53,659 bases of DNA. Origin: Bacillota bacterium (lineage in GTDB: Bacteria; Bacillota; Dehalobacteriia; UBA4068). The stretch spans positions 1 through 53,659 of the forward strand of contig DAIMZM010000003.1 in the NCBI GenBank assembly GCA_036733985.1, in the 5' to 3' direction. The translations under genes and the position numbers were made by a program. Each line of letters begins with the position of its first letter. The stretch's first letter is position 1. A model generated the notes under the pieces. That model saw nothing but the letters and a program-made list of their open reading frames with translations. It did not search any database and had not been told where the DNA came from. Shown piece after piece: positions 6,919-40,526 of the stretch.

Positions 6919-8640
6919 TTACCGCATATTTTTCATTTTACGGCTGATGGTGCTCTGATCAACGCCCAGGATTTCAGCAATCTTGGTGGCGGTGGGATAC
7001 TTTTCCAGGGCCAGGGCGATCAACTGCTGTTCCACACTGTTCACCGCTTCCCGCAGCGGCATGATGCGATTGATGATAATGCCGTTGCCCTGGTCTTTGG
7101 CCAGGATATGCACGGGCAGGTCGGCAACGGTGATCGTGTCTTTGTCGGAAAGGACAACCAGCCGCTCGACAATGTTCTGCAATTCACGGATATTCCCCGG
7201 CCAGTGGTATTCCATAAAGCGCTGGATCACATCGGCCTCCAGTATTTTGTTCTTGCCGTATTGCTTATTATAGCGGTTGATAAAAAACATGGTCAGCGGC
7301 AGAATATCGTCCGGCCGCTCCCTGAGCGCCGGCACATGGATGGGCACCACGTTCAAGCGGTAATAGAGGTCTTCCCGGAACCGGCCGCTGCGCATCTCCG
7401 TTTCCAGATCCCGGTTGCAGGCGGCGATGATCCGCACGTCCACCTGGATGACCTTGGTGCCGCCTACCCGGATCAGCGTGCCTTCCTGCAGGATCCGCAG
7501 CAGTTTGACCTGCATATTCAGGGGGATCTCCGAAATCTCGTCCAGGAACAGCGTGCCGCGGTGGGCCAGCTCGAACAGGCCCTGTTTGCCTTCTTTGCTG
7601 GCGCCGGTGAAAGCGCCCCTTTCATAGCCGAACAGTTCGGATTCCAGCAGCGTTTCCGGAATGGCGCCGCAGTTGATCTTAATGTACTGCCTGTCCTTGC
7701 GCGGGCTGTTGGCATGGATAAAGGCGGCCAGCACTTCCTTGCCCACGCCGGATTCGCCGGTGATCAGGACCGTGGAATCCACATCGCTGACCTTCAGCGC
7801 CATATGGGCCACATTGGCCATGGCCTGGCTGGTATAAATAAATTTATTCTGCTCCATATTGCGGGCGCGCAATTCGTCCAGTTCATGCTTGTAGGCGTCC
7901 AGCAGCAGCTTGATGCTGTCCAGCTCCACCTTCATGCTTTGTTCCGAGGTGATGTCCCGGGAAAGGTTGATGACCTGGACGATCTCCCCCTGCTTATTGG
8001 TAAAGGGCGTGCCGATCACCATCAGCTTCCGGCCGGTCTTCGTCACCTGGATACACTGGACCCGCTGCTTGGTTTCCAGGACCAAGCGGGTGATAGAGGG
8101 CCGGTACACCCCCTCCTCCTCCAGATCCTGCACCCGGCGGCCGATCATCTTGTCCGCCGTCATCCCCCATAATTCCTCGCAGGCGGCGCTGACCTTCTGG
8201 GTGATGCCGCCGCCGTCCGAGGCATAAATCACATCATAATTGGAATTAAAAATCGCCCGGATATCATTGTTCAGGTCATCGTAAGAACCGCCCCAGACCG
8301 GATCCGCCGGCGACTGGTAGGCGTCGGCAGGGATGGTCAGCTGCATGGCGCCCAGCAGGGTACCCTGATCCCAGATCCCGCTCTGCAGGCAGAAATTATC
8401 GCCGTCCCGGAACATCAGGCGGGTTTTGGTATGTACATTCAGCATTTTGGGCAAGGTATGTTCCGGCCAGACCGACTGGATATCCTGATGCAGCAAATCC
8501 GCCTTTTCATAGCCGGTTTCTTCAATAAACGGATCGTTTACATAAGAAATCCGCGCGCCCCGGTCAATAATGATCAAACGGCCCGGTAAACTATCCAGGA
8601 TATTCTGCAGAAAAGAAGACTTATCGCGGAGCAGGTTCAT
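6919..8640 (-). CDS. sigma-54-dependent transcriptional activator (PAS sensor domains, AAA+ domain, Fis-type HTH)
   Basis: Walker A GESGVGKE, sigma-54 contact loop GAFTGA (ERGAFTGASKEG), C-terminal HTH KIAEILGVDQSTISRKMK. The ATG at 8640 (RBS GGGGTGA) is preferred over the GTG at 8652. Confidence 0.9.
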   Translation of the reverse strand: MNLLRDKSSFLQNILDSLPGRLIIIDRGARISYVNDPFIEETGYEKADLLHQDIQSVWPEHTLPKMLNVHTKTRLMFRDGDNFCLQSGIWDQGTLLGAMQLTIPADAYQSPADPVWGGSYDDLNNDIRAIFNSNYDVIYASDGGGITQKVSAACEELWGMTADKMIGRRVQDLEEEGVYRPSITRLVLETKQRVQCIQVTKTGRKLMVIGTPFTNKQGEIVQVINLSRDITSEQSMKVELDSIKLLLDAYKHELDELRARNMEQNKFIYTSQAMANVAHMALKVSDVDSTVLITGESGVGKEVLAAFIHANSPRKDRQYIKINCGAIPETLLESELFGYERGAFTGASKEGKQGLFELAHRGTLFLDEISEIPLNMQVKLLRILQEGTLIRVGGTKVIQVDVRIIAACNRDLETEMRSGRFREDLYYRLNVVPIHVPALRERPDDILPLTMFFINRYNKQYGKNKILEADVIQRFMEYHWPGNIRELQNIVERLVVLSDKDTITVADLPVHILAKDQGNGIIINRIMPLREAVNSVEQQLIALALEKYPTATKIAEILGVDQSTISRKMKNMR

Positions 8641-8796
8641 GATTTCGCTCACCCCATTATGCTTAACCTAGCGGCCTGTCAGTAAATTCTAACACAAAGC
8701 AACGGTGGAAACAAGAACCCCCGGGTACGGGGGGCTAATTTATATCGGACGCGCCTCTTGGCCGAATGCCCGGCTTTAGCAAGGCCGGGCCTGCTC

Positions 8797-8825
8797 TTGA
8801 CTTCGCCCCCGGCTTATGCTATATT
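8797..8825 (+). promoter_or_regulatory. sigma-A type promoter for scfA
   Basis: TTGACT, 17 nt spacer, TATATT, ~70 nt upstream of the scfA ATG. Confidence 0.6.
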
Positions 8826-8894
8826 TTTGATATTATGAAAGAAGACTTGAGTCCGCCTGTTTTGGCCGGGCTTCATGAAAACGGAGGAAAACCA

Positions 8895-9041
8895 ATGGAC
8901 CGAATCAAGACCCTGAAAACCCGGGATTTATGTGAAAGCGCGAAGGACGGCGGCTGCGGCGAATGCCAGACCTCCTGCCAATCCGCCTGCAAAACCAGCT
9001 GCGGCGTTGCCAACCAGAAATGCGAGAGCGAAGAAAAATAA
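8895..9041 (+). CDS. scfA: SCIFF (six-cysteines-in-forty-five) ranthipeptide precursor
   Basis: MDRIKTLKTRDLCESAKDGGCGECQTSCQSACKTSCGVANQKCESEEK contains the hallmark GGCGECQTSCQSACKTSC core. GGAGG sits 7 nt before ATG 8895. The longer track ORF from 8766 is not supported. Confidence 0.93.
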   Translation: MDRIKTLKTRDLCESAKDGGCGECQTSCQSACKTSCGVANQKCESEEK

Positions 9042-9058
9042 ACCGGTTCCGCTATGGA

Positions 9059-9085
9059 AATGCCGCCACTGGCGGCATTTTTTTA
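9059..9085 (+). terminator. intra-operon hairpin with U-tract between scfA and scfB (partial terminator/attenuator)
   Basis: AATGCCGCC-ACT-GGCGGCATT followed by TTTTTT. Confidence 0.65.
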
Positions 9086-9109
9086 TGAACGGCTGGGAGA
9101 TAAACGCCA

Positions 9110-10501
9110 ATGATGCATCAATACGCACTGAACGGCTATCATATCGTGCTGGATACCTGCTCCGGCTCCGTACATGCCGTAGACCCGCCGGCCTATGACC
9201 TGATCGCCCTCTACCCGGATAAGACCGAGGCGGAGATCATCGCGATCCTGCTGGACAAATACCAAGGCCAGGCGGATCTGGACGGGGATGAACTCCATGC
9301 CTGCTACCAGCAGGTGGCCGCCCTGGAAAAGGCGGGAAAGCTCTTCACCCCCGACCATTACCAGCCTCTGGCCGGGGAATTCAAGAACCGTTCCCAAGAG
9401 GTGAAGGCTCTCTGCCTGCATGTGGCCCATACCTGCAATCTGAACTGCGCCTACTGCTTTGCCAGCCAGGGCAAATACCAGGGGGAGCGGGCCCTGATGC
9501 CTTTTGACGTGGGCAAACAGGCCCTGGATTTCCTGATCGCCCATTCCGGCAGCCGCCGCAACCTGGAAGTGGATTTCTTCGGCGGCGAGCCCTTGATGAA
9601 CTGGCAGACGGTGAAAGACCTGGTGGCCTATGCCCGCTCCGTGGAGCAGCAAAAAGGCAAGAACTTCCGCTTCACCCTGACCACCAACGGCCTGCTCATC
9701 GACGACGAGGTCATTGATTTTGCCAACCGGGAAATGAGCAACGTGGTGCTGAGCCTGGACGGGCGTCAGGAAGTCCATGACCGGCTGCGCAAGGATTACG
9801 CGGGCCAGGGCAGCTGGCAGCGGATCGTGCCCAAATTCCAGCGGCTGGTTCAGGCCCGGGGGGACAAGGACTATTATATCCGGGGCACCTTTACCCATGC
9901 CAACCCGGATTTCCTGGAGGATATCCTGGCCATGGCCGAGCTGGGCTTCACCCAGCTGAGCATGGAGCCGGTGGTCTGCGCCCCGGAGGACCCGGCGGCC
10001 CTTACCGAAGAAGATTTGCCCATCTTGCTGGAACAATACGAATTGCTGGCCCAAGAAATGCTGCGCCGCCGCCGGGCAGGCCGGCCCCTGAACTTCTACC
10101 ACTATATGATCGACCTTTCCGGCGGCCCCTGCGTTTACAAGCGCATCTCCGGCTGCGGCTCCGGCACGGAATACTTAGCCGTCACCCCCTGGGGCGATCT
10201 TTACCCCTGCCATCAATTCGTGGGGGAGGAAGCCTTTAAGCTGGGAAATATCTGGGAAGGTGTGACCAACGCCGCCCTTCAGGAGCAGTTCCGGGGCTGC
10301 AATGCCTATGCCAGACCGGATTGCGGGGACTGCTGGGCCCGGCTCTACTGCTCCGGCGGCTGCGCCGCCAACGCCTACCATGCCGCCGGCTCGATCCTGG
10401 GCGTTCATGACTACGGCTGCCGCCTGTTCCGCAAGCGCATGGAATGCGCCATTATGCTGAAAGTGGCGGAAGAACTGGAACAGGGTCCGGCCGGCCAATA
10501 A
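9110..10501 (+). CDS. scfB: SCIFF radical SAM maturase (thioether-forming, SPASM domain)
   Basis: Radical SAM CNLNCAYC motif, C-terminal Cys-rich SPASM region (CGSG..CHQ..CGDCWARLYCSGGCAAN), and position immediately after scfA. Confidence 0.9.
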   Translation: MMHQYALNGYHIVLDTCSGSVHAVDPPAYDLIALYPDKTEAEIIAILLDKYQGQADLDGDELHACYQQVAALEKAGKLFTPDHYQPLAGEFKNRSQEVKALCLHVAHTCNLNCAYCFASQGKYQGERALMPFDVGKQALDFLIAHSGSRRNLEVDFFGGEPLMNWQTVKDLVAYARSVEQQKGKNFRFTLTTNGLLIDDEVIDFANREMSNVVLSLDGRQEVHDRLRKDYAGQGSWQRIVPKFQRLVQARGDKDYYIRGTFTHANPDFLEDILAMAELGFTQLSMEPVVCAPEDPAALTEEDLPILLEQYELLAQEMLRRRRAGRPLNFYHYMIDLSGGPCVYKRISGCGSGTEYLAVTPWGDLYPCHQFVGEEAFKLGNIWEGVTNAALQEQFRGCNAYARPDCGDCWARLYCSGGCAANAYHAAGSILGVHDYGCRLFRKRMECAIMLKVAEELEQGPAGQ

Positions 10502-10544
10502 AGGTGGGCCGCCAAAGTCCCGCCCAGCCGATAAGGAGGAAACC

Positions 10545-11918
10545 GTGAACACGCCGATTTGTGATTTTGTCAAGGGCTACAGCCAAGGGGATTTTTCCCG
10601 CCTGCATATGCCGGGCCATAAGGGCCAAGGCCCCCTGGGCTGCGAAGGCCTGGACATCACCGAGATCAGCGGAGCGGATTCCCTGTATCAGGCAAGCGGG
10701 ATCATTGCCGAAAGCGAAGCCAATACCCGGGCCCTGTTCAATTCCGGGGCCACTTTTTTCGCCACAGAGGGCTCCTCCCAATGTATCCGGGCCCTGCTTT
10801 ACCTGGCTGTGCTGGCTCAGGGCCCTGGAGACCGGCCCCCCCTGGTGCTGGCGGGCCGGAACGCCCATCAATCCCTGATCTCAGCCGCGGCCCTGCTGGA
10901 TCTGGAGCTGGCCTGGCTCTGGCCGGAAGCGGCGGATTTCACCCTTTGCGCCTGCCCGATCAGCCGGGCCGGCCTGGAGCAAGCCCTGGCCGGCCTGGAC
11001 AGGCCCCCGGCGGCGGTCTTCCTCACCAGCCCGGATTATCTGGGGGGCCTGCTGGATATCAAGGCTCTGGCCGAAGTCTGCCATAGCCGGGGCATCCCCC
11101 TGCTGGTGGACAATGCCCATGGCGCTTATCTCCATTTCCTGGAGCAGCCGGCCCATCCCCTGGATCTGGGGGCGGACGCCTGCGCGGATTCCGCCCATAA
11201 GACCCTGCCGGTGCTGACCGGCGGCGCTTATCTGCAGATCGGCAACAGCGCGCCGCCTGTTTTTGCCCAGGCAGCCCGGCGGACCCTGGCCCTCTTCGGC
11301 TCCACCAGCCCCTCTTACCTGATCCTCCAATCCCTGGATCAGGCCAATCGCTTTCTGGCTGGGGAAGGCCCGGCGCAAATCCGGCAAACCGCTGCTCAGG
11401 TGGCTGGGCTAAAAAGCCGCCTGGCCCTGGCAGGCTGGGAGATTCTCCCCGGCGAGGCCCTGAAGCTGACCCTCCGGGGCCGACCCCACGGCTATAGCGG
11501 CGGGGCGCTGGCGGAACAGCTGCGCCAGGACCGGGTGGAGGCGGAGTATTGGGATCCGGATCATCTGACCCTGATGTTCAGCACAGGCAACCAAACCTTG
11601 GATTATCAGCGGATCGGGGCGGCCCTGGGCCGATTGCCCAAAAAAGCGCCCCTGGCCCGGCCTTGGCTGGCCCTGCCCCGGCCGGAGCGCTGTCTGAGCC
11701 CCCGGGCAGCCCTGTTCAGCCCGGCGGAAACGGTGGCGGCGGAAGCCGCCGTAGGCCGGGTGCTGGTGGCGCCCAGCACCGGCTGCCCCCCGGCGGTACC
11801 GGTGGCGGTCAGCGGCGAAAGGATCGGGCCGGAAGCCGCGGCCATTTTCCGCTATTATGGCACCGAGCGCCTGGTTGTGCTGAAAGAAAACGGAGAGCGG
11901 ATTTGCGCCCGGGGATAG
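10545..11918 (+). CDS. Orn/Lys/Arg decarboxylase family (fold type I PLP) enzyme
   Basis: N-terminal HMPGHKG motif and PLP-lysine context DSAHKTLPVLTGGAY. GTG start with RBS AAGGAGG. Confidence 0.8.
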   Translation: MNTPICDFVKGYSQGDFSRLHMPGHKGQGPLGCEGLDITEISGADSLYQASGIIAESEANTRALFNSGATFFATEGSSQCIRALLYLAVLAQGPGDRPPLVLAGRNAHQSLISAAALLDLELAWLWPEAADFTLCACPISRAGLEQALAGLDRPPAAVFLTSPDYLGGLLDIKALAEVCHSRGIPLLVDNAHGAYLHFLEQPAHPLDLGADACADSAHKTLPVLTGGAYLQIGNSAPPVFAQAARRTLALFGSTSPSYLILQSLDQANRFLAGEGPAQIRQTAAQVAGLKSRLALAGWEILPGEALKLTLRGRPHGYSGGALAEQLRQDRVEAEYWDPDHLTLMFSTGNQTLDYQRIGAALGRLPKKAPLARPWLALPRPERCLSPRAALFSPAETVAAEAAVGRVLVAPSTGCPPAVPVAVSGERIGPEAAAIFRYYGTERLVVLKENGERICARG

Positions 11919-11982
11919 CCAGGCACTTTCCCGGTTTTTTGCCATAAGCTGAAAGCATAAACAAAACCCGGGAGGAACGCTT

Positions 11983-12621
11983 ATGTCCGAACACTATCCT
12001 TTCAGCAATCCGCCGCTGCCTTATGCTTACGACGCCTTGGAGCCCTATATCGACGCCCGCACCATGATGCTGCACCATGACCGGCATCTGCGGGCTTATA
12101 CGGATAATCTGAACGCGGCCCTGGCAGACCAGCCCCGGCTGCAGACCCTGACCCTGGAAGAATTGCTGGCCATTTATCCGGCCCTGCCCGAACCCCTGGC
12201 CACCCAGATCCGGAACAACGCCGGGGGCGTGTATAATCACCGGCTGTTTTTCAATGGCCTGACCCCGGCGGCCAATGCGGTGGAAAACCATAGCCATCCC
12301 CTTTATGGGGCGATTGGCCGGACTTTCGGCAATACCGGGGATATGCTGCAGTCTCTGGGGGAAGCGGCCATGTCCGTTTTCGGCTCCGGCTATGCCTGGC
12401 TGGTGCTGCTGCCCGACGGCAGCCTGGCCATTACCACCACGGCCAACCAGGATACGCCGCCCTTAGGCCAGATGCTGCCCCTGCTGAACGCGGATGTTTG
12501 GGAGCACGCCTATTATCTCAAGCATTATAACAACCGCTACGCCTACCTGGGCGACGCCATGCATGTGATCAACTGGCCGGAAGTGGAGGCCCGCTATGAC
12601 GCGGGCATGGGCCTGAGCTAA
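11983..12621 (+). CDS. sodA: Fe/Mn superoxide dismutase
   Basis: LPYAYDALEPYIDARTMMLHHDRHLRAY and DVWEHAYYLKHYNNR are metal-ligand motifs. Confidence 0.93.
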   Translation: MSEHYPFSNPPLPYAYDALEPYIDARTMMLHHDRHLRAYTDNLNAALADQPRLQTLTLEELLAIYPALPEPLATQIRNNAGGVYNHRLFFNGLTPAANAVENHSHPLYGAIGRTFGNTGDMLQSLGEAAMSVFGSGYAWLVLLPDGSLAITTTANQDTPPLGQMLPLLNADVWEHAYYLKHYNNRYAYLGDAMHVINWPEVEARYDAGMGLS

Positions 12622-12816
12622 AGCGCCGGAGCCCGCTCCAGCCGGTCTTTTTCCCGGACTGCCGCCATGGCCCCGGCCCGGGAAAGGGGGCCCGCCAGGG
12701 GACAAGCCGGGGGCGTCCGCTTCAGCCGCCCGCCCCCCGGCCGGGGAAAGGAGTGGCGGAATAGTTGGGTTTTCCAGCGGAATGATGCTATACTAAGATC
12801 AACAGAGTGGGCGGAG

Positions 12817-13488
12817 GTGAGGCAAACGGCGTATTATACCTATCTGCTGCGCTGCGGGGACAACAGCCTCTATACCGGCATCACCACGGATCTGGGCCGC
12901 CGCTTCGCCGAACACCAGGGGCAAGGGGGCAAAGGCGCCAAATATACCGCCGCCCGCCGGCCCCTGCGCTTTGAGGCAGCCTGGCAATCAACGGGCCGGG
13001 CCGCGGCCTCCCGGCTGGAACAGAGCCTGAAAGCCCTGAGAAAGCCGGACAAGGAACGGCTGATCCAGGGCCAAATCCCCGCCGGCCTGGATCTTTCGCC
13101 TTATATCAGGATTCATCTTACCGACAATGGAGGGATCGTCATGCTGTTTGTTTGCTATGCCAGATGTACCACCTGCCAAAAGGCCCGGGACTTCCTGGAC
13201 GCCAGGGGCGCGGCCTATGTCTTCCGCGATATTAAAACCGAGCCGCCCAGCGAGGCGGAGCTCCGGGCCTGGCAGCAAAAGAGCGGCCTGCCCCTGAAGC
13301 GTTTCTTCAACACCAGCGGCCTGCAATACAAGGCCCTGGGCCTCTCGAAAAAGCTGCCCAGCCTGACCGGGGACGAGCAGTTTGCCCTGCTGGCTAGCGA
13401 CGGGATGCTGGTCAAGCGCCCGATCCTGGCGGCTGAGGATTTTGTCCTGGTGGGCTTTAAACCGGCGGAGTGGGAAGAAAAACTGTAG
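12817..13488 (+). CDS. GIY-YIG nuclease-family (UPF0213-like) domain reading without a stop into an ArsC/Spx-family thioredoxin-fold domain
   Basis: From GTG 12817: MRQTAYYTYLLRCGDNSLYTGITTDLGRRFAEHQ (GIY-YIG). The frame continues into MLFVCYARCTTCQKARDFL..LVKRPIL (ArsC family). There is no in-frame stop between the two. Confidence 0.55.
   Translation: MRQTAYYTYLLRCGDNSLYTGITTDLGRRFAEHQGQGGKGAKYTAARRPLRFEAAWQSTGRAAASRLEQSLKALRKPDKERLIQGQIPAGLDLSPYIRIHLTDNGGIVMLFVCYARCTTCQKARDFLDARGAAYVFRDIKTEPPSEAELRAWQQKSGLPLKRFFNTSGLQYKALGLSKKLPSLTGDEQFALLASDGMLVKRPILAAEDFVLVGFKPAEWEEKL
13141..13488 (+). CDS. ArsC/Spx/MgsR-family protein (alternative independent start inside the fused ORF)
   Basis: GGAGGGATCGTC-ATG at 13141 is a near-ideal RBS and spacing. 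The 115-aa product is the normal size for this family and has an N-terminal CxxC (CTTC). Confidence 0.7.
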   Translation: MLFVCYARCTTCQKARDFLDARGAAYVFRDIKTEPPSEAELRAWQQKSGLPLKRFFNTSGLQYKALGLSKKLPSLTGDEQFALLASDGMLVKRPILAAEDFVLVGFKPAEWEEKL

Positions 13489-13709
13489 CCCGCCCACGCC
13501 GGACAACCGCCCCCCGCCGCCGCCTCTTGCCCCTGATCAAACCGGTTCTCCGCGGCATAGACAATAGGCATAGGCAATAAAGGGCCTGCTCCCGCACTTC
13601 TCCTGCGGGAGCTTTGCGCTGGCAAAAGCCAAAAGACCGCTGAAACAGGCGCGGCATTTTTAGCGGAGCGCCGCCATATACATGGAGCAGACCAGGAGGT
13701 GATCCCGCT

Positions 13710-13889
13710 ATGGGGCAGTCCTTGCAGTTCTGTTTCCATGATCCGAACCCGGCGGCGATAACCGCCGATTTCCTGCTGCGCCTGCTGGTACAAGCCAACC
13801 AGCCCCGGCTGGAAGCCTTGCTGCGACAGGCGGCGGCAGACCTGACGCCGGCAAGCCCCGCCCCAGGCCGGGACGGGGGCTGCCCATGA
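13710..13889 (+). CDS. 59-aa hypothetical protein, translationally coupled (ATGA) to the recombinase gene; possible recombination directionality factor
   Basis: Below the track cutoff. AGGAGG is upstream. Product MGQSLQFCFHDPNPAAITADFLLRLLVQANQPRLEALLRQAAADLTPASPAPGRDGGCP. Its stop TGA overlaps the recombinase ATG at 13886. Confidence 0.4.
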   Translation: MGQSLQFCFHDPNPAAITADFLLRLLVQANQPRLEALLRQAAADLTPASPAPGRDGGCP

Positions 13890-15413
13890 ACATCGCCGCC
13901 TATTGCCGGGTGTCCACAGATAAGTCCGACCAGCTCAACAGCTTAGAAGCCCAGAAGCGCTTCTTCAGCGACTATACCCGGAAGACCGGCCACACCCTGG
14001 TGCGGCTTTACGCGGACGAGGGGCTTTCCGGCACCCGGACGAAAAACCGCGAGCAATTCCTTTGCCTGATGCGGGACGCGGAAGGGGGCCTCTTCGACCT
14101 GGTGGTGGTGAAGGACATCTCCCGCTTTGCCCGGAACACCGTCGATTTGCTGCAAAGCATCCGCAGGCTGAAAGCCCTGGGGGTGGAAACGCTCTTCCTC
14201 ACCGCCAATATGACCAGCATGGGCAACAGCGAATTCGTGCTGACCATCTTCGGCGCCCTGGCCCAGGAGGAGTCCGCCAATACCAGCAAGCGCATCAAGT
14301 TCGGCAAAAAAATCAATGCGGAGCGGGGCCGGGTGCCGAATTTGGTCTTCGGCTATGACAAAACCCCCGGCGACTATTTCAACCTTACCGTCAACCCGCA
14401 GGAAGCGGCAGTGATCCGCCAGATGTTCCACTGGTATGTGGACGAGGGCTGCGGCGGCGCGAAGATCGCCAACCGCCTGAACCAGCAGGGGATCAAGACC
14501 AAGCGGGGCTGCAGCTGGTCCCAGAACGCGGTCTGCCGCATCCTTACCAATGAACTCTATATCGGCAGGATCATCAACGGCAAGCAGGAGGTGGCGGACT
14601 TCCTCACCGGCCAGCGGGCCGAAAAAGGGGAAGCAGACTGGCTGGTGACGGAACGCCCCGGCCTGGCCATCGTGGACGGGAAGCTCTTCGCCAAGGCCCG
14701 GCAGATAATGGCTGAGCGGGGACAAGCCTTCCAGGCGGCGAAAGAGCGGCAGAGCAATAAGCACCTGTTCTCCACCCTGATCAAGTGCCGGGAATGCGGC
14801 CGGTCCTTCCGCCGCACCGTACGCACTTACAAGCATACCTATGTGCGCTGGGTCTGCTCCGGCCATAACGGCAGAGGCGCGGAAAGCTGCGGGAACGCCG
14901 TCACCGTGGACGAAGACGCGCTGATCGCCGCCCTGAACCGCTATTTCGCCGATATGCTGCGGTCAAAGAAGAACGCCGTCAGCCAGGCGGTGAATGAGTT
15001 CAACCGGGTCTGCCAGGCGAAATGCCGGGACGCGCAGTATGAGAAGGCGCTCCGGGCTAAACTCAGCCGCCTGCAGAAAACCCGGCAGAAGTACATGGAC
15101 ATGTACGCCGACGACCTGATCAGCCGGGAAGCGCTGAACGCCAAGATCGGCGGCAGCAAGCAGGAGGCGGAGCGGCTGGAAAACGAACTGAAGCTGGCCG
15201 CCTGCCATAGCGCCAAAGGCGGGCAGCTGGAAACCCTGATCCGCAGCGCCTTCGCCACCGTTGAAAGCATCGCCGACGCGGGCCAGCTGACCAATGCCCA
15301 GCTGAAGCAGATCATCCAGCGGATCGAGGTGGACAAGGCCGGCCGGGTGGATATCTACCTGCGCCGGCTGGGTGATCCAGGCCTGGATGAAACCGTTCTC
15401 ATTCGCGACGGCC
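13710..15413 (+). mobile_element. visible right-hand end of an intervening element inserted in spoIIID (left boundary not identified in this window)
   Basis: The recombinase stop codon (15419..15421) lies inside the first recognisable spoIIID codons. A GTAC core at 15414..15417 is flanked by partly symmetric arms (CGTTC 15394-98 / GAACG 15432-36). Confidence 0.6.
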
Positions 15414-15421
15414 GTACATAA
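13886..15421 (+). CDS. large serine recombinase (SpoIVCA/TnpX-like: resolvase domain, recombinase domain, zinc ribbon, coiled coil, DUF4368-like tail)
   Basis: MNIAAYCRVSTDKSDQLNSLEAQ (catalytic Ser context), VKDISRFARN, Zn ribbon CRECGRSF..WVCSGH..CGN, and a C-terminal KQIIQRIEVDKAGRVDIYL tail like that of SpoIVCA. Confidence 0.92.
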   Translation: MNIAAYCRVSTDKSDQLNSLEAQKRFFSDYTRKTGHTLVRLYADEGLSGTRTKNREQFLCLMRDAEGGLFDLVVVKDISRFARNTVDLLQSIRRLKALGVETLFLTANMTSMGNSEFVLTIFGALAQEESANTSKRIKFGKKINAERGRVPNLVFGYDKTPGDYFNLTVNPQEAAVIRQMFHWYVDEGCGGAKIANRLNQQGIKTKRGCSWSQNAVCRILTNELYIGRIINGKQEVADFLTGQRAEKGEADWLVTERPGLAIVDGKLFAKARQIMAERGQAFQAAKERQSNKHLFSTLIKCRECGRSFRRTVRTYKHTYVRWVCSGHNGRGAESCGNAVTVDEDALIAALNRYFADMLRSKKNAVSQAVNEFNRVCQAKCRDAQYEKALRAKLSRLQKTRQKYMDMYADDLISREALNAKIGGSKQEAERLENELKLAACHSAKGGQLETLIRSAFATVESIADAGQLTNAQLKQIIQRIEVDKAGRVDIYLRRLGDPGLDETVLIRDGRT

Positions 15422-15575
15422 AGACGTGACCGAACGCCTGCCCCTCCTCAATGAGCTGGTGGCCAACAAGGTGCGGGATATCCTGGATAACAACAAGGCC
15501 GAGCGGCATTTACGGGGCGGGGAGGCAACGAAACGCAAATACTTGAACCTGCGGGAACAGGATATCGACAATTAG
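15408..15575 (+). pseudogene. spoIIID: spoIIID 3' segment (about residues 37 to end of the mother-cell regulator SpoIIID), lacking start codon and N-terminal HTH helices
   Basis: The translation ..TAVHKDVTERLPLLNELVANKVRDILDNNKAERHLRGGEATKRKYLNLREQDIDN aligns with B. subtilis SpoIIID STVHKDLTERLPEINPDLANEVKEILDYHKSIRHLRGGEATKLKY. Upstream in-frame sequence lies within the recombinase gene. Confidence 0.8.
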
Positions 15576-15577
15576 TA

Positions 15578-15609
15578 AAACAGGCAGGGGTGAAATCCCC
15601 TGCCTGTTT
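15578..15609. terminator. bidirectional intrinsic terminator between the spoIIID fragment and the convergent HD gene
   Basis: AAACAGGCAGGGG-TGAAAT-CCCCTGCCTGTTT, a 13-bp perfect stem with A/T runs on both sides. Confidence 0.8.
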
Positions 15610-15618
15610 ATCCGCTGC

Positions 15619-16194
15619 TTATGAGGATTCCTTAGGCCCCAACCCCAGGGCCTGGGTTTCCTTTTGCATGCCCGCGATGGTCAGCGCCATCACCTCCGGG
15701 AGCTCCATGCCTAAAAGGCCGCAGCCTTTCAGGATCACTTCCCGGTCGCATTTGGCGGCGAAGCGCTTGTCCTTGAATTTCTTCAGGGCGCTTTTCACCT
15801 CCAGATCCGTGATGCCGCCGGGGCGCATCAGGGCCGCCGCCATGACGATGCCGGTGAGCTCATCTACGGTATAGAGGCTTTTTTCCAGATTGCTCTTGGG
15901 CTCCACATCGCTGCAGAGGCCAAAGCCATGGGCCAGGATGGCCCGGATATCCGCTTCCTCCACCCCTTCCGGTTCCAGCAGTTCCCGCACATGCTGGCAA
16001 TGTTCCTCCGGATAAGGCTGATAATCCACATCATGCAAATAGCCGATGGCCTGCCAATAGGCCGGGTCTTCGCCAAAATGCCCGGCCATCGCCCCCATGG
16101 CGGCGCTGACCGCCAGAGCATGGAGCAGCAAATGTTCTTCCGTGCAATGCTTGCCCAGGATTTCCCCGGCCCTGGCCAGGGTTAATGAAACCAT
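15619..16194 (-). CDS. HD-domain (HDIG-type) metal-dependent phosphohydrolase
   Basis: H..HALAVS and YLHDVDY motifs. ATG 16194 is preferred (GGAGG 7 nt upstream). Confidence 0.8.
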   Translation of the reverse strand: MVSLTLARAGEILGKHCTEEHLLLHALAVSAAMGAMAGHFGEDPAYWQAIGYLHDVDYQPYPEEHCQHVRELLEPEGVEEADIRAILAHGFGLCSDVEPKSNLEKSLYTVDELTGIVMAAALMRPGGITDLEVKSALKKFKDKRFAAKCDREVILKGCGLLGMELPEVMALTIAGMQKETQALGLGPKESS

Positions 16195-16408
16195 ATCCAT
16201 TCCTCCCTATTGATCCGGTCGCTACCCTGTCCCAGGGCAAATTCCGCTAAAACAACGGATTTATGACTGTTTCTCTATTGTTTCTTCACGGCCCGCCCGG
16301 TTCCTGCCAAGAAATTCCCAGGAACCGGCTGAAAAGCTTTCGCGTCAAAGCAGTAACCCCAGCCGTTTTGCCGCATATAATGTGTCACAACAGGAACGGG
16401 AGGCGGCT

Positions 16409-17056
16409 ATGGCAAGAGGCTGGCAGCATAAACGGCGGAAAAGAAGGCGCGTCTTACTTTTGCTGGCTGCCTTTATTTTGCTGTTTGCCCTTTTTTACAG
16501 CGCCGAGCGGGCCCTTTCCCCGGCGCTGCAAACCGCGGCCATGCAGCGGGCCCATACCCTGGCCATGGCGGCCATGACCGAAGCCATCCGGGATCAGATC
16601 GCCTTAAACCCGGGGGTGGGGGATTATCAGCAATTGATGTATATCGAGCGGGATCTGGAAGGCCGCATCACCCTGATGGTCATGGATACCCAGATGTTGA
16701 ACAGGCTGATCAGCAATGTGGTTCTCGACGCGGAACAGCGCCTGGAGCTTTTGGGCAAGCAGCATCTGACCCTGCCGCTGCTGGCTTTGACCGGCAGCCC
16801 CCTCTTTGCCGGAGCCGGGCCGGATCTGCGCTTCTCCTTCCGCATGAGCAGCGCGCCCCTGCTCACCCTGGAGGATGAATTCACCGAAGCCGGGGTGAAC
16901 CAGACCCGGCACCGCATTTATGTGGAGCTTACCGCGGATCTCCGGGTGGTGGCCCCCTTCTCCCAGGCTGAGGAACGGGTCACCGCCACCGTACTGCTGG
17001 CGGAAGGCATTATCCTGGGCTATACCCCGGATACCTATGTGAACCTGGGCAAATAA
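16409..17056 (+). CDS. yunB: sporulation protein YunB
   Basis: N-terminal basic/TM segment, then a region colinear with YunB (..GSPLFAGAGPDLRFSF..TEAGVNQTRHRIYVEL..VLLAEGIILG). ATG 16409 has the RBS GGGAGG. Confidence 0.75.
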   Translation: MARGWQHKRRKRRRVLLLLAAFILLFALFYSAERALSPALQTAAMQRAHTLAMAAMTEAIRDQIALNPGVGDYQQLMYIERDLEGRITLMVMDTQMLNRLISNVVLDAEQRLELLGKQHLTLPLLALTGSPLFAGAGPDLRFSFRMSSAPLLTLEDEFTEAGVNQTRHRIYVELTADLRVVAPFSQAEERVTATVLLAEGIILGYTPDTYVNLGK

Positions 17057-39040: not shown

Positions 39041-40252
39041 TTAAGGCCCGGAAGCTGCCGCAGGCTGGAAGCCGCCCAGCTCGGTCTGGGCTTCCAGGGT
39101 GACGCTGGCCCGGCGCAGGCTTTCTTCCAGCCGGATATCGTCCACCCGGGTCTCCACGATCCGGGTTACGGCGATATCATATTGGGCAAACAGGGCTTTC
39201 CGGGCATTCAGCTCAGCCCGTTTCCTGGCCAGGGCCTGGGCTTTTTCCGGGCCGTAGACGGTTGTCTTGGCTTCAAGCTCGTGAAATGCGGTGGTTACTA
39301 CTTCGACGGGCAGGCTGAGATTCCTCCACAAGCAGGCGTCGGCCCTGAGCCGTTCCTGGACGAACAGGCCGAAGGGGCTTTCCCCGCCGCCTTGCACCAC
39401 CCAGGTTTGGCCGTTGGCAAAAGTGATCTCACTAGCGGACCAGGCGCTCTTGCCTGTTTTCAGCATACCCGTTTCCTTCAGCGGGCATTCCCCATAGCCG
39501 GAAGCCCAGATACGGGCGGTGACAATGCCGTCCGCCGCCACCGGCTCCGCGCTCAAACCGGAATAGCCGTAAATCAGCACATCGCCTTTCTGCACCGGCT
39601 GGCCGCTGGCCACCGCGGCTGTGCCCCGGCGCACCAGCACGTCGATGATCACCCCGTCGGCCAGGGCCACCACATTGCCCGGGGGCTTCCTGGCTTCCGT
39701 AGGCGTCACATCCACCCGCCGGGCCACCGCCAGCTCCACCCGCTGGCCCCGGACCTTGGCTTCCACATAAAAAAGCTGGGGCATGGCATGGAGCAGATAG
39801 GCCTCCACCTGCTCCACATCTACCCGAAGCCGGGTCACGCCGGGCTTCAGGCCCGCCGCCGCCGCCAAATCCAGCACCTGCTGCAGCTCCTGATCGGAAA
39901 GAGGGCCTTCCCCGGCCACAGTGACTTCCACCACCAGGGTGCTTAAAAAGAGCATCAGCAGCAAGGCCAGGAGCGCGGCCAGGGGCAGCAAGGGCCGCCG
40001 GCGCAGCAAAGCCTGGAAAAAGGGCAGGCCCCGGCGGCGGACAAAGCGCACCCGGCAGCGGCTGTCCCGGGCGGCCCGGCGCAGCAGGGGCAGCTGATCA
40101 TAAGCCAGCCGGGCGCTGCAGCCCCGGCTATCCAGGCAAATATCCGTCAATTCCAGGCCCTGGTTTAAGGCCGCGTCCAGAAAAGCGCCGGCATCGCCCA
40201 AGACCCGGATATCCAGGCTACCCTGGAACAGGCGGAGGGGGTCAGTTTTCAT
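39041..40252 (-). CDS. yqfD: sporulation protein YqfD
   Basis: MKTDPLRLFQGSLDIRVLG.. with one TM helix and a conserved C-terminal domain. Its start overlaps the yqfC stop. Confidence 0.85.
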   Translation of the reverse strand: MKTDPLRLFQGSLDIRVLGDAGAFLDAALNQGLELTDICLDSRGCSARLAYDQLPLLRRAARDSRCRVRFVRRRGLPFFQALLRRRPLLPLAALLALLLMLFLSTLVVEVTVAGEGPLSDQELQQVLDLAAAAGLKPGVTRLRVDVEQVEAYLLHAMPQLFYVEAKVRGQRVELAVARRVDVTPTEARKPPGNVVALADGVIIDVLVRRGTAAVASGQPVQKGDVLIYGYSGLSAEPVAADGIVTARIWASGYGECPLKETGMLKTGKSAWSASEITFANGQTWVVQGGGESPFGLFVQERLRADACLWRNLSLPVEVVTTAFHELEAKTTVYGPEKAQALARKRAELNARKALFAQYDIAVTRIVETRVDDIRLEESLRRASVTLEAQTELGGFQPAAASGP

Positions 40253-40526
40253 GCTTTGCCACCTCCGCCAGCTGCACGTCATCGATGCGGCCCTGGATTT
40301 CCAGGCGTTCCCGGCTCAGGCTCAGCAGGCAGAGGCCCTCCCCCCGCACCCGGGCCCATTCATGCCGGCCCCGGAAAACGATCAGATCCGGCTGATAGAC
40401 CCGGATGCCCTGATGGTTTTCCGCGATCAGCAGGCGGCTGCCGATCAGCTCCAGACGCAAATCATCCCCAGCCACCCCGGCCGGTATCTCCAACAGCTCC
40501 GCCGCCTTCCGCACCCCGCTTTTCAC
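40242..40526 (-). CDS. yqfC: sporulation protein YqfC (YabP family)
   Basis: LEIPAGVAGDDLRLELIG...I.ENH.GI.. follows the YabP/YqfC pattern. GTG start. Confidence 0.85.
   Translation of the reverse strand: MKSGVRKAAELLEIPAGVAGDDLRLELIGSRLLIAENHQGIRVYQPDLIVFRGRHEWARVRGEGLCLLSLSRERLEIQGRIDDVQLAEVAKHEN

Follow-up and report, generated by a model that had tools for sequence, protein, structure and literature searches.

What becomes of a developmental regulator gene of which only the downstream half is present, directly behind a site-specific recombinase gene? This question is raised by a stretch of DNA from a Bacillota bacterium of the Dehalobacteriia (UBA4068; assembly GCA_036733985.1, contig DAIMZM010000003.1). 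The stretch, hereafter the window, is the whole source contig of 53,659 nucleotides (53.6 kb). In it, a gene for a large serine recombinase (LSR) runs into the 3' part of spoIIID, the gene for the mother-cell regulator SpoIIID. A preliminary description, made from the sequence of the window, left three options: an element larger than 15 kb that extends beyond the window, an inversion, or a dead remnant. According to the analysis presented here, the window probably contains what is left of an element that formerly interrupted spoIIID and measured about 6.7 kb (approximately 8744-15419); its interior and its right end are present. The 5' half of spoIIID and the left attachment site (attL) were deleted, so that the gene cannot be rejoined in cis and is a pseudogene at this locus. 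Two features form the right junction:

13886-15421, + strand: large serine recombinase, 511 amino acids, intact (Pfam domains; phrog_95 integrase, E 7e-114; full-length alignment to 163 relatives)
15417-15575, + strand: spoIIID 3' fragment from His38 to the stop codon, encoding the end of the recognition helix and the C-terminal basic region (PF12116 positions 34-80)

The recombinase has the architecture of an LSR, with an N-terminal resolvase catalytic domain (Resolvase, PF00239, 9e-30), a Recombinase domain (PF07508, 3e-23) and a zinc-ribbon domain (Zn_ribbon_recom, PF13408, 3e-12), all above the cut-offs. The motifs AAYCRVSTD and VVVKDISRFARN of the catalytic domain are unchanged with respect to the family described below, and 253 of 278 family-conserved positions are kept; where residues differ, the exchange is mostly a conservative one (K to R, I to V or L). 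In NCBIfam the models that match best, CcrB, CcrC and XisF, all score far under their cut-offs, and the earlier label "SpoIVCA-like" is valid only at the level of LSR domain architecture. The frame from 15372 to 15575 is indeed SpoIIID-like: it matches positions 34-80 of the 82 positions of the Pfam model PF12116 (E 6e-20) and aligns to residues 35-79 of Bacillus subtilis SpoIIID with 64% identity. A full-length SpoIIID (TIGR02844/PF12116, about 85-95 amino acids with an N-terminal helix-turn-helix) is not encoded; what remains is the 3' 55% of the gene, in frame after the recombinase, to 15575. Joined to the 5' fragment of a sister locus (L167, see below), the window fragment passes the equivalog cut-off of TIGR02844 (135 versus 111.5 bits) and is therefore a genuine spoIIID 3' end. 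The two genes share nucleotides at the junction. The spoIIID codons there are GTA (15414-15416), CAT (His, 15417-15419) and AAA (Lys, 15420-15422), and the TAA stop codon of the recombinase (15419-15421) is made of the T of CAT and the first two A of AAA. The earlier claim that the recombinase gene ends where the 3' portion of spoIIID begins is thus confirmed.

The same junction is widespread. Recombinase scans of one genome per species, together with metagenome contigs, gave 160 loci (L numbers), of which 154 were testable at the junction; six contigs end too early. The recombinases of this family are 68-72% identical to that of the window, and a metagenome scan for closer relatives returned the same cluster only, again at about 70% identity. 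In 145 of these 154 the end of the recombinase gene passes directly into a 3' fragment of spoIIID, broken at the same His38 codon. The 5' fragment is also present in 28 loci, where it comprises residues 1-38 (ending ..SKSTVH) plus a few read-through codons and lies 4.9-11.3 kb upstream of the 3' fragment on the same strand. Excision in silico, by joining at the His codon, restores a complete SpoIIID open reading frame (ORF) in 27 of these 28 loci and in L167; in the remaining locus, L140, the pattern match failed in the simulated excision. Complete elements occur in cultured species such as Pseudoflavonifractor sp. Marseille-P3106, Schaedlerella arabinosiphila DSM 106076, Blautia species and Acutalibacter intestini. 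The preliminary description had likened the locus to the skin element, with a recombinase at a hybrid att site interrupting a mother-cell gene, and this comparison is well founded: the ORF of a mother-cell gene is interrupted and the recombinase sits at the element's edge beside the 3' fragment. Both halves as direct repeats are found in L167 and 27 relatives; in the window, the 5' half and attL are deleted.

Among the named hosts are Lachnospiraceae (Blautia, Schaedlerella, Acetatifactor, Faecalimonas), Oscillospiraceae and relatives (Pseudoflavonifractor, Acutalibacter, Intestinimonas, Agathobaculum), and also Christensenella and others. Across these bacterial families the recombinases of the cluster are on average 84% identical to each other, which indicates horizontal spread. 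The elements of the relatives carry relaxases (Mob_Pre, or MobA/VirD2 with MobC), RepA_N and Cys_rich_VLP proteins and a variable cargo, such as an XcyI-type restriction-modification pair, pairs of AAA_21 ATPases and hydrolases. Both relatives tested by Pfam have a relaxase (L024 Mob_Pre, with RepA_N and Cys_rich_VLP; L057 MobA/VirD2 and MobC), and the mobile relatives are best described as small integrative mobilizable elements. A phage origin was rejected. Phage structural genes were seen neither in the six elements read by ORF nor in the ten ORFs tested by Pfam, and the best match in a phage database was 54% identical, all others being at most 36% identical. This best match is encoded on MT838016.1, an unannotated record of 6398 bp from human faeces ("Bacteriophage sp."), which may represent a virome capture of a small circular element that belongs to a related family.

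Some loci of the family deviate at the junction. In L010, L140, L020 and others the His codon is CAC or the junction is altered in another way, and the TAA stop is lost; the recombinase ORF then continues into the spoIIID region, with a length of 552 amino acids in L010 and L140. In nine of the 154 loci (L019, L029, L061, L098, L112, L134, L147, L157 and L165) the recombinase end adjoins a sequence that is not spoIIID, which could mean a secondary site or, for some of them, a junction of the attP type. A different LSR of 506 amino acids was seen in L083-L085 (17637-19157) beside an apparently truncated polysaccharide deacetylase gene, in a species with an intact spoIIID (P0017), and this may be another interrupted gene.

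From the 28 pairs of attL and attR the attachment sites could be aligned and attP reconstructed:

15392-15443, + strand: attR, consisting of the P arm 15392-15415 (ACCGTTCTCATTCGCGACGGCCGT), the core ACAT 15416-15419 and the B' arm 15420-15443

In the family, attL reads ..AGCAARAGTACGGTACAT|ATGGTAGTAACAAAATAGAACGGT, with ..GTACATAYGGNNGTRAYAAA..GAACGG in its P' arm, attR reads ACCGTTCTAATTnnTnACAACCATACAT|AAAGATGTnACnGAGCG, and the predicted attB is ..AGCAARAGYACNGTACAT|AAAGAYGT... The reconstructed attP is dyad-symmetric and consists of two imperfect inverted arms of 24 nucleotides (nt) around ACAT. Its symmetry centre predicts CA (15417-15418), inside the His codon, as the crossover dinucleotide. 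The partly symmetric arms noted in the preliminary description are indeed there (CCGTTC 15393-15398 and GAACG 15432-15436), but the GTAC core proposed with them is not supported: the core shared by the 28 pairs is ACAT(A). The window attR has the P arm, core and B' arm of the family, and attL is absent from the window: the attL pattern, with three mismatches allowed, had no match, no second att-like site was found, and tblastn with the SpoIIID N-termini of B. subtilis and of the closest relatives gave only noise. The 5' fragment is hence missing from the window, as had been noted before. A left end hidden in 13489-13709 was also considered and rejected; this region has no att site and contains a terminator-like hairpin (by eye) and the conserved promoter of a small ORF.

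Where the left end had been became evident from L167, a 48-kb metagenome contig that carries the closest orthologue of the HD-domain protein encoded next to the 3' fragment (85% identity) and is syntenic with the window on both sides. Read in the orientation of spoIIID, L167 has genes for a CN-hydrolase and a sigma-54 activator, the spoIIID 5' fragment (MQDYIRERVLSVGNYILESRATVRQTATIFGVSKSTVH|TAVINRNG..) with an attL of the family type (GTACAT|ACGGCGGTGATAAACAGGAACGG), and then a SCIFF peptide, its radical-SAM maturase, a decarboxylase, a YgjP-like protein, a superoxide dismutase (SOD), a small ORF of 70 amino acids and a recombinase of 523 amino acids; attR with the spoIIID 3' fragment, HD, YunB, PBP and HcyBio genes follow. 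The order in the window is the same, except that a GIY-YIG/ArsC gene is present instead of the YgjP-like gene and that the 5' fragment is missing. In L167, the 5' fragment and attL are 6.7 kb upstream, flanked by the genes for the sigma-54 activator and for SCIFF. The corresponding site is inside the window, and the following features mark it, together with the host flank on the right:

6919-8652, - strand: sigma-54-dependent activator, the host gene left of the former spoIIID 5' end (Pfam Sigma54_activat, PAS, HTH_50)
8730-8743, + strand: stub of the spoIIID ribosome-binding site and start, GGGGGCTAATTTAT, with the G of ATG gone (exact 14-nt match to L167)
8744-8795, + strand: deletion scar, 52 nt versus about 170 nt in L167 (anchored comparison with L167)
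15619-16200, - strand: HD-domain hydrolase (Pfam; syntenic in L167 and L168)
16382-17056, + strand: sporulation protein YunB (Pfam; syntenic in L167 and L168)

The sigma-54 activator is 91% identical at the amino acid level to, and syntenic with, the gene adjoining the L167 5' fragment, and a sequence similar to GGGGGCTAATTTAT precedes the intact spoIIID of L178. At the scar, L167 has spoIIID codons 1-38, the ACAT core, the attL P' arm and a spacer; from 8796 on, the SCIFF promoter is retained in the window. Upstream of the stub, the window is about 300 nt shorter than L167 and lacks a promoter-like sequence common to L167 and the intact spoIIID of L178. The deletion was placed by anchored exact matches and an affine-gap alignment against L167, MAFFT being unable to place it. 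The scar is base-for-base identical in L181-L184, from four other assemblies (GCA_964607365.1, ERZ724081, ERZ724083 and ERZ724086), and the right junction (ArsC, small ORF, recombinase, 3' fragment) is reproduced in six other contigs (L001, L082 and L170-L173). From this we conclude that the deletion of the 5' half is real and, as far as sampled, fixed. A misassembly, which we also considered, was rejected on the same grounds, six other assemblies being involved altogether. The neighbourhoods of the closest intact SpoIIID (P0017, P0003, P0012) and of distant HD orthologues (P0132, P0128) are not syntenic, and the arrangement before the insertion can therefore not be reconstructed.

These data decide between the options named at the outset. 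An element of more than 15 kb, or an inversion, does not fit with a 5' fragment and attL that L167 has at 6.7 kb upstream, in the interval from the sigma-54 activator gene to the SCIFF gene; and the metabolic genes that had been taken for ordinary flanking DNA (8895-13488) are inside the former element. The option that survives is the remnant, since the site at 8730-8795 keeps only the ribosome-binding-site stub, in the four independent assemblies as well. Could the gene nevertheless still work, with the 5' fragment and attL moved elsewhere by inversion or translocation and spoIIID restored when the mother cell rearranges its DNA? Intact components are what one would see if it did, and intact are attR, the recombinase and the small ORF with its promoter-like motif, as well as nearby sporulation genes; at the protein level the 3' fragment, too, is strongly conserved in spite of many synonymous changes. 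However, the ancestral 5' site is a scar with a stub in five assemblies, a relocation needs a copy made before the deletion, and in all family members seen the halves occur only as direct repeats 5-11 kb apart. We regard a split gene that still functions as very improbable.

How may the remnant have arisen? We propose that it goes back to integrative mobilizable elements of 5-11 kb, a family that is widespread among gut Clostridia and whose recombinase integrates into the His38 codon of spoIIID, in the stretch encoding the recognition helix. In the common ancestor of the window species, L167 and L086 such an element would have become resident and lost its mobilization genes. A single sigma-E-like promoter would have come to precede a tightly linked pair of small ORF and recombinase, and host-like genes (the SCIFF operon, decarboxylase and SOD) would have been gained. 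In this ancestral state, which L167 would still represent, recombination of attL with attR would rejoin spoIIID; the presumed trigger is the product of the small ORF, acting as directionality factor and made in the mother cell from the sigma-E-like promoter. In the window species, deletions then removed the spoIIID promoter, codons 1-38 and attL. The recombinase operon remained intact, attR was orphaned, and the 3' fragment could not be rejoined in cis.

Two observations fit one old insertion that was inherited vertically. The recombinases of the window, L167 and L086 have the derived residues E56Q, I152L, Y375C and T454A in common, where conservation within the mobile cluster is 97% or higher, and none of the three loci has a separate sigma-A promoter; between small ORF and recombinase there is either an overlap or a gap of 17 nt in the window and L167. 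The integrative mobilizable character of the family is no longer seen in the window, where the genes in 8744-15421 encode SCIFF, the radical-SAM protein, the decarboxylase, SOD and GIY-YIG/ArsC, and no relaxase. The synonymous divergence (dS) between window and L167 is similar throughout (0.42-0.78; 1.56 in the 58-codon small ORF). Flanking genes have a ratio of nonsynonymous to synonymous divergence (dN/dS) of 0.12-0.23 and interior genes one of 0.27-0.42; the recombinase, with 0.47, exceeds all others among the ten genes that were compared. The interior genes may be under weaker constraint. The spoIIID 3' fragments of the two loci differ by many synonymous changes, by two nonsynonymous core changes and by a short difference in the tail.

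Some points speak against an orphaned remnant with this history. Neither the recombinase and the small ORF nor the attR arms and the 3' fragment show a frameshift, a stop or obvious decay; the deletion would therefore have to be recent relative to the split from L167, or a second spoIIID or another use of the recombinase would have to exist. The sporulation genes yunB and yqfD (39041-40282) are intact as well, so that no collapse of the sporulation programme is apparent. Beyond the 53.6 kb searched, the genome may contain a 5' fragment that was relocated, or another, intact spoIIID. For all members of the family, excision is predicted from joining in silico. The window recombinase is 70% identical to the mobile cluster and only 60% identical to that of L167, which requires a twofold difference in rate (a faster L167/L086 branch) or a separate, more complex history. 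Finally, the presence of host-like genes inside the element is not accounted for.

The first of these points leads to two further explanations. The locus may be a redundant relic that decays without cost next to a second, intact spoIIID elsewhere, the organism still sporulating. The intact YunB and YqfD speak for such a copy, and duplicated segments do exist in this genome, as judged from an apparent decarboxylase paralogue in the same metagenome-assembled genome (left end of L001). SpoIIID is normally encoded by a single copy, though, and two copies were present in none of the retrieved loci; we infer that the window species has no second spoIIID and consider the redundant copy unlikely. Alternatively, the recombinase module may serve another pair of sites or persist in a selfish or regulatory role; in that case, the fragment of spoIIID would be the scar of an old target. 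The intact ORF with its mostly conservative changes at family-conserved positions would be in line with this, and the nine relatives at sites other than spoIIID indicate that secondary sites are used. Yet the dN/dS of the recombinase is the highest of all genes compared, no second att-like site was found in the window and there is no positive evidence for another substrate, so that this explanation appears even less probable than a split gene that works. An orphaned remnant in which spoIIID is broken remains the likely reading of the locus.

If excision occurs during development, what would drive it? The candidate is encoded directly upstream of the recombinase:

13710-13889, + strand: small ORF of 59 amino acids (..LQFCFHDPNP..TADFLLRLL..), with homologues in 127 of 150 related loci
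13654-13691, + strand: promoter-like element, GCATTTT (13654-13660), a 14-nt spacer, CATATACA (13675-13682) and then TGGAGCAGA (family motif)

In the window, the stop codon of the small ORF overlaps the start codon of the recombinase (ATGA). The family proteins have 50-70 amino acids (KLNYRFHNPN..TADYLLK..) and accompany the recombinase in these 127 loci; in 66, the small ORF is its direct upstream neighbour. Searches of Pfam, NCBIfam and PHROG gave no family for the small ORF. Its product is a candidate recombination directionality factor. A two-block motif, (G/T)ACTATTT, 13-14 nt and CATAGAcATGGACAAAG, is found at a fixed distance upstream of the LNY motif of the small ORF in 80 of 99 distinct sequences, versus 0.2% of shuffles, and close versions of the window element are present in L167 and L086. 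The CATATACAT motif that had earlier been compared to mother-cell -10 boxes is part of this family-conserved, promoter-like element, but it is located at 13675-13683 and not at 13674-13682. In B. subtilis, the consensus of sigma-E promoters is kmATATT-N14-CATACAhT and that of the SpoIIID box is WWRRACARNY. The two-block motif appears to resemble sigma-E promoters, and ATGGACAAAG, which is part of the small-ORF promoter and lies at its start site, fits a SpoIIID box. The small ORF is putatively sigma-E dependent. In the mobile relatives, the recombinase has a sigma-A-like promoter of its own, TTTACA-N17-TATAAT, followed by GTTGTAACAGAACGA; promoter and box are located about 40-90 nt upstream of the recombinase start (L003-L051 and others). 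The GTTGTAACAGAACGA box resembles the att P' arm (GTAACA..GAACGG) and also the SpoIIID box of Clostridioides difficile, KRTAACARK, and may, by its sequence, serve autoregulation of the recombinase or control by SpoIIID. It should be mentioned that horizontal spread also demands excision of the element in vegetative cells, which a purely sigma-E-driven factor leaves unexplained.

The remaining features of the former element and of its right border are as follows:

8895-9041 and 9110-10501, + strand: SCIFF peptide (TIGR03973, 80 bits, cut-off 50) and its radical-SAM maturase (TIGR03974, 739 bits, cut-off 425)
10545-11918, + strand: Orn/Lys/Arg-decarboxylase-like gene (Pfam, NCBIfam; interior in L167 too)
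11983-12621, + strand: Fe/Mn SOD (Pfam, NCBIfam; interior in L167 too)
12667-13488, + strand: fusion of GIY-YIG and ArsC/Spx-like domains (Pfam, NCBIfam)
15580-15610, no strand assigned: GC-rich hairpin with a T run, terminator-like, between the convergent spoIIID 3' end and HD gene (read by eye from the sequence)

With a six-Cys-in-45 peptide beside a radical-SAM/SPASM maturase, the SCIFF ranthipeptide system is complete. Its operon lies between attL and the recombinase in L167 as well, where excision would put it on the excised circle; in no other retrieved locus does SCIFF adjoin spoIIID. The GIY-YIG/ArsC-Spx fusion, here between SOD and the small ORF, is absent from L167, whose YgjP-like gene sits between decarboxylase and SOD. 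To the right of about position 11172 of the window, L001 (GCA_964607365.1, contig 51) agrees with it at 99.97% identity, with two mismatches. Its left 1.5 kb (1-1465; compared with window 9600-11100) is unrelated and contains a 319-amino-acid ORF, which we take to be FemAB-like, and a different N-terminal half of the decarboxylase. This second, partly identical decarboxylase gene in another context hints at a paralogue elsewhere in the genome, or at a chimeric contig.

How does the family compare with known systems? Tn4451/Tn4453-type integrative mobilizable elements of clostridia combine the serine recombinase TnpX with a Mob/Pre relaxase. By gene content, they are similar to L024 in being small and in having an LSR, a Mob_Pre-type relaxase and cargo; Tn4451 is not known to target a sporulation gene with near-exclusive site specificity. 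Developmental excision by an LSR in a terminally differentiated cell is also the principle of XisF and the fdxN element in Anabaena heterocysts. XisF is among the best NCBIfam matches of the window recombinase (E 5e-30), but with 105 bits versus a cut-off of 375 bits the latter is not an XisF orthologue; phylum and target differ, too.

Elements that interrupt genes and are excised by LSRs in the mother cell are well known as a kind: skin in sigK, SPbeta in spsM, vfbin, vrin, gin in gerE and yin in yabG. In C. difficile, the skin recombinase CD1231 is constitutive and the sigma-E-dependent recombination directionality factor CD1234 limits excision to the mother cell (PMC5025042). The mobile relatives mirror this arrangement with a sigma-A-like promoter for the recombinase and a small ORF behind a sigma-E-like promoter, and in them and L167 the gene halves are direct repeats as in the skin elements of B. 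subtilis (SpoIVCA) and C. difficile. Skin is prophage-like, whereas the family described here consists of mobilizable elements of 5-11 kb; the window element differs further by the deletion of attL and of the 5' half. Skin targets sigK and this family targets spoIIID, which acts upstream of sigK. Since spoIVCA of B. subtilis and CD1234 depend on SpoIIID, the control logic of skin cannot apply to spoIIID elements, and a simpler circuit driven by sigma-E alone is predicted if their excision is developmental.

Strictly speaking, spoIIID is no new target, although the preliminary description knew of no precedent. Galperin et al. (2022, bioRxiv 10.1101/2022.02.25.481979) list in one sentence and Table S3 a "skin-like" element that interrupts the spoIIID gene in Ruminiclostridium cellulolyticum H10, with pieces of 126 nt (3645999..3646124) and 144 nt (3710868..3711011) about 65 kb apart. 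Compared by these listed gene pieces, the 126-nt piece (42 codons) matches the 38 codons plus short read-through seen here, and the break point is the same; with about 65 kb the element is much larger than those of the family. No other paper on a split spoIIID was found in the literature searched. The gin element in gerE of Bacillus cereus ATCC 10987 (PMC5595907) is likewise small, non-phage and equipped with a serine recombinase, and it also interrupts the gene of a small mother-cell transcription factor. Host class and target are different, and the family described here has relaxases and defence or restriction-modification cargo and is found in two families of Clostridia. What appears to be undescribed is the breadth of the phenomenon, with loci numbering in the hundreds, the mobilizable nature of the elements, the conserved small ORF with its promoter, the resident lineage with host-like cargo and the decay seen in the window.

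Taken as a whole, we can offer the following picture only tentatively. A mobilizable family of broad host range uses the His38 codon of spoIIID as attachment site and would be excised in the mother cell by a small, sigma-E-driven directionality factor; in one lineage of the Oscillospiraceae it would have been domesticated together with SCIFF, and the window species would have lost SpoIIID, and probably efficient sporulation, recently and irreversibly. If this is true, the synthesis of SpoIIID, the mother cell's earliest regulatory step below sigma-E, depends on a DNA rearrangement in hundreds of species, and the SpoIIID-box-like ATGGACAAAG at the start site of the small ORF could give negative feedback once spoIIID is rejoined. 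Such a developmental rearrangement would be placed earlier in the cascade than that of skin. Sporulation governs transmission and persistence of gut Clostridia, and SpoIIID has a place high up in the mother-cell cascade. In many spore formers, annotation pipelines will report that spoIIID is missing or a pseudogene, which biases genome-based predictions of sporulation. The window adds the far end of a trajectory that leads from a mobile element to a resident with host genes and on to an orphaned remnant with an irreversibly broken regulator, and this trajectory is a concrete route to the loss of sporulation.

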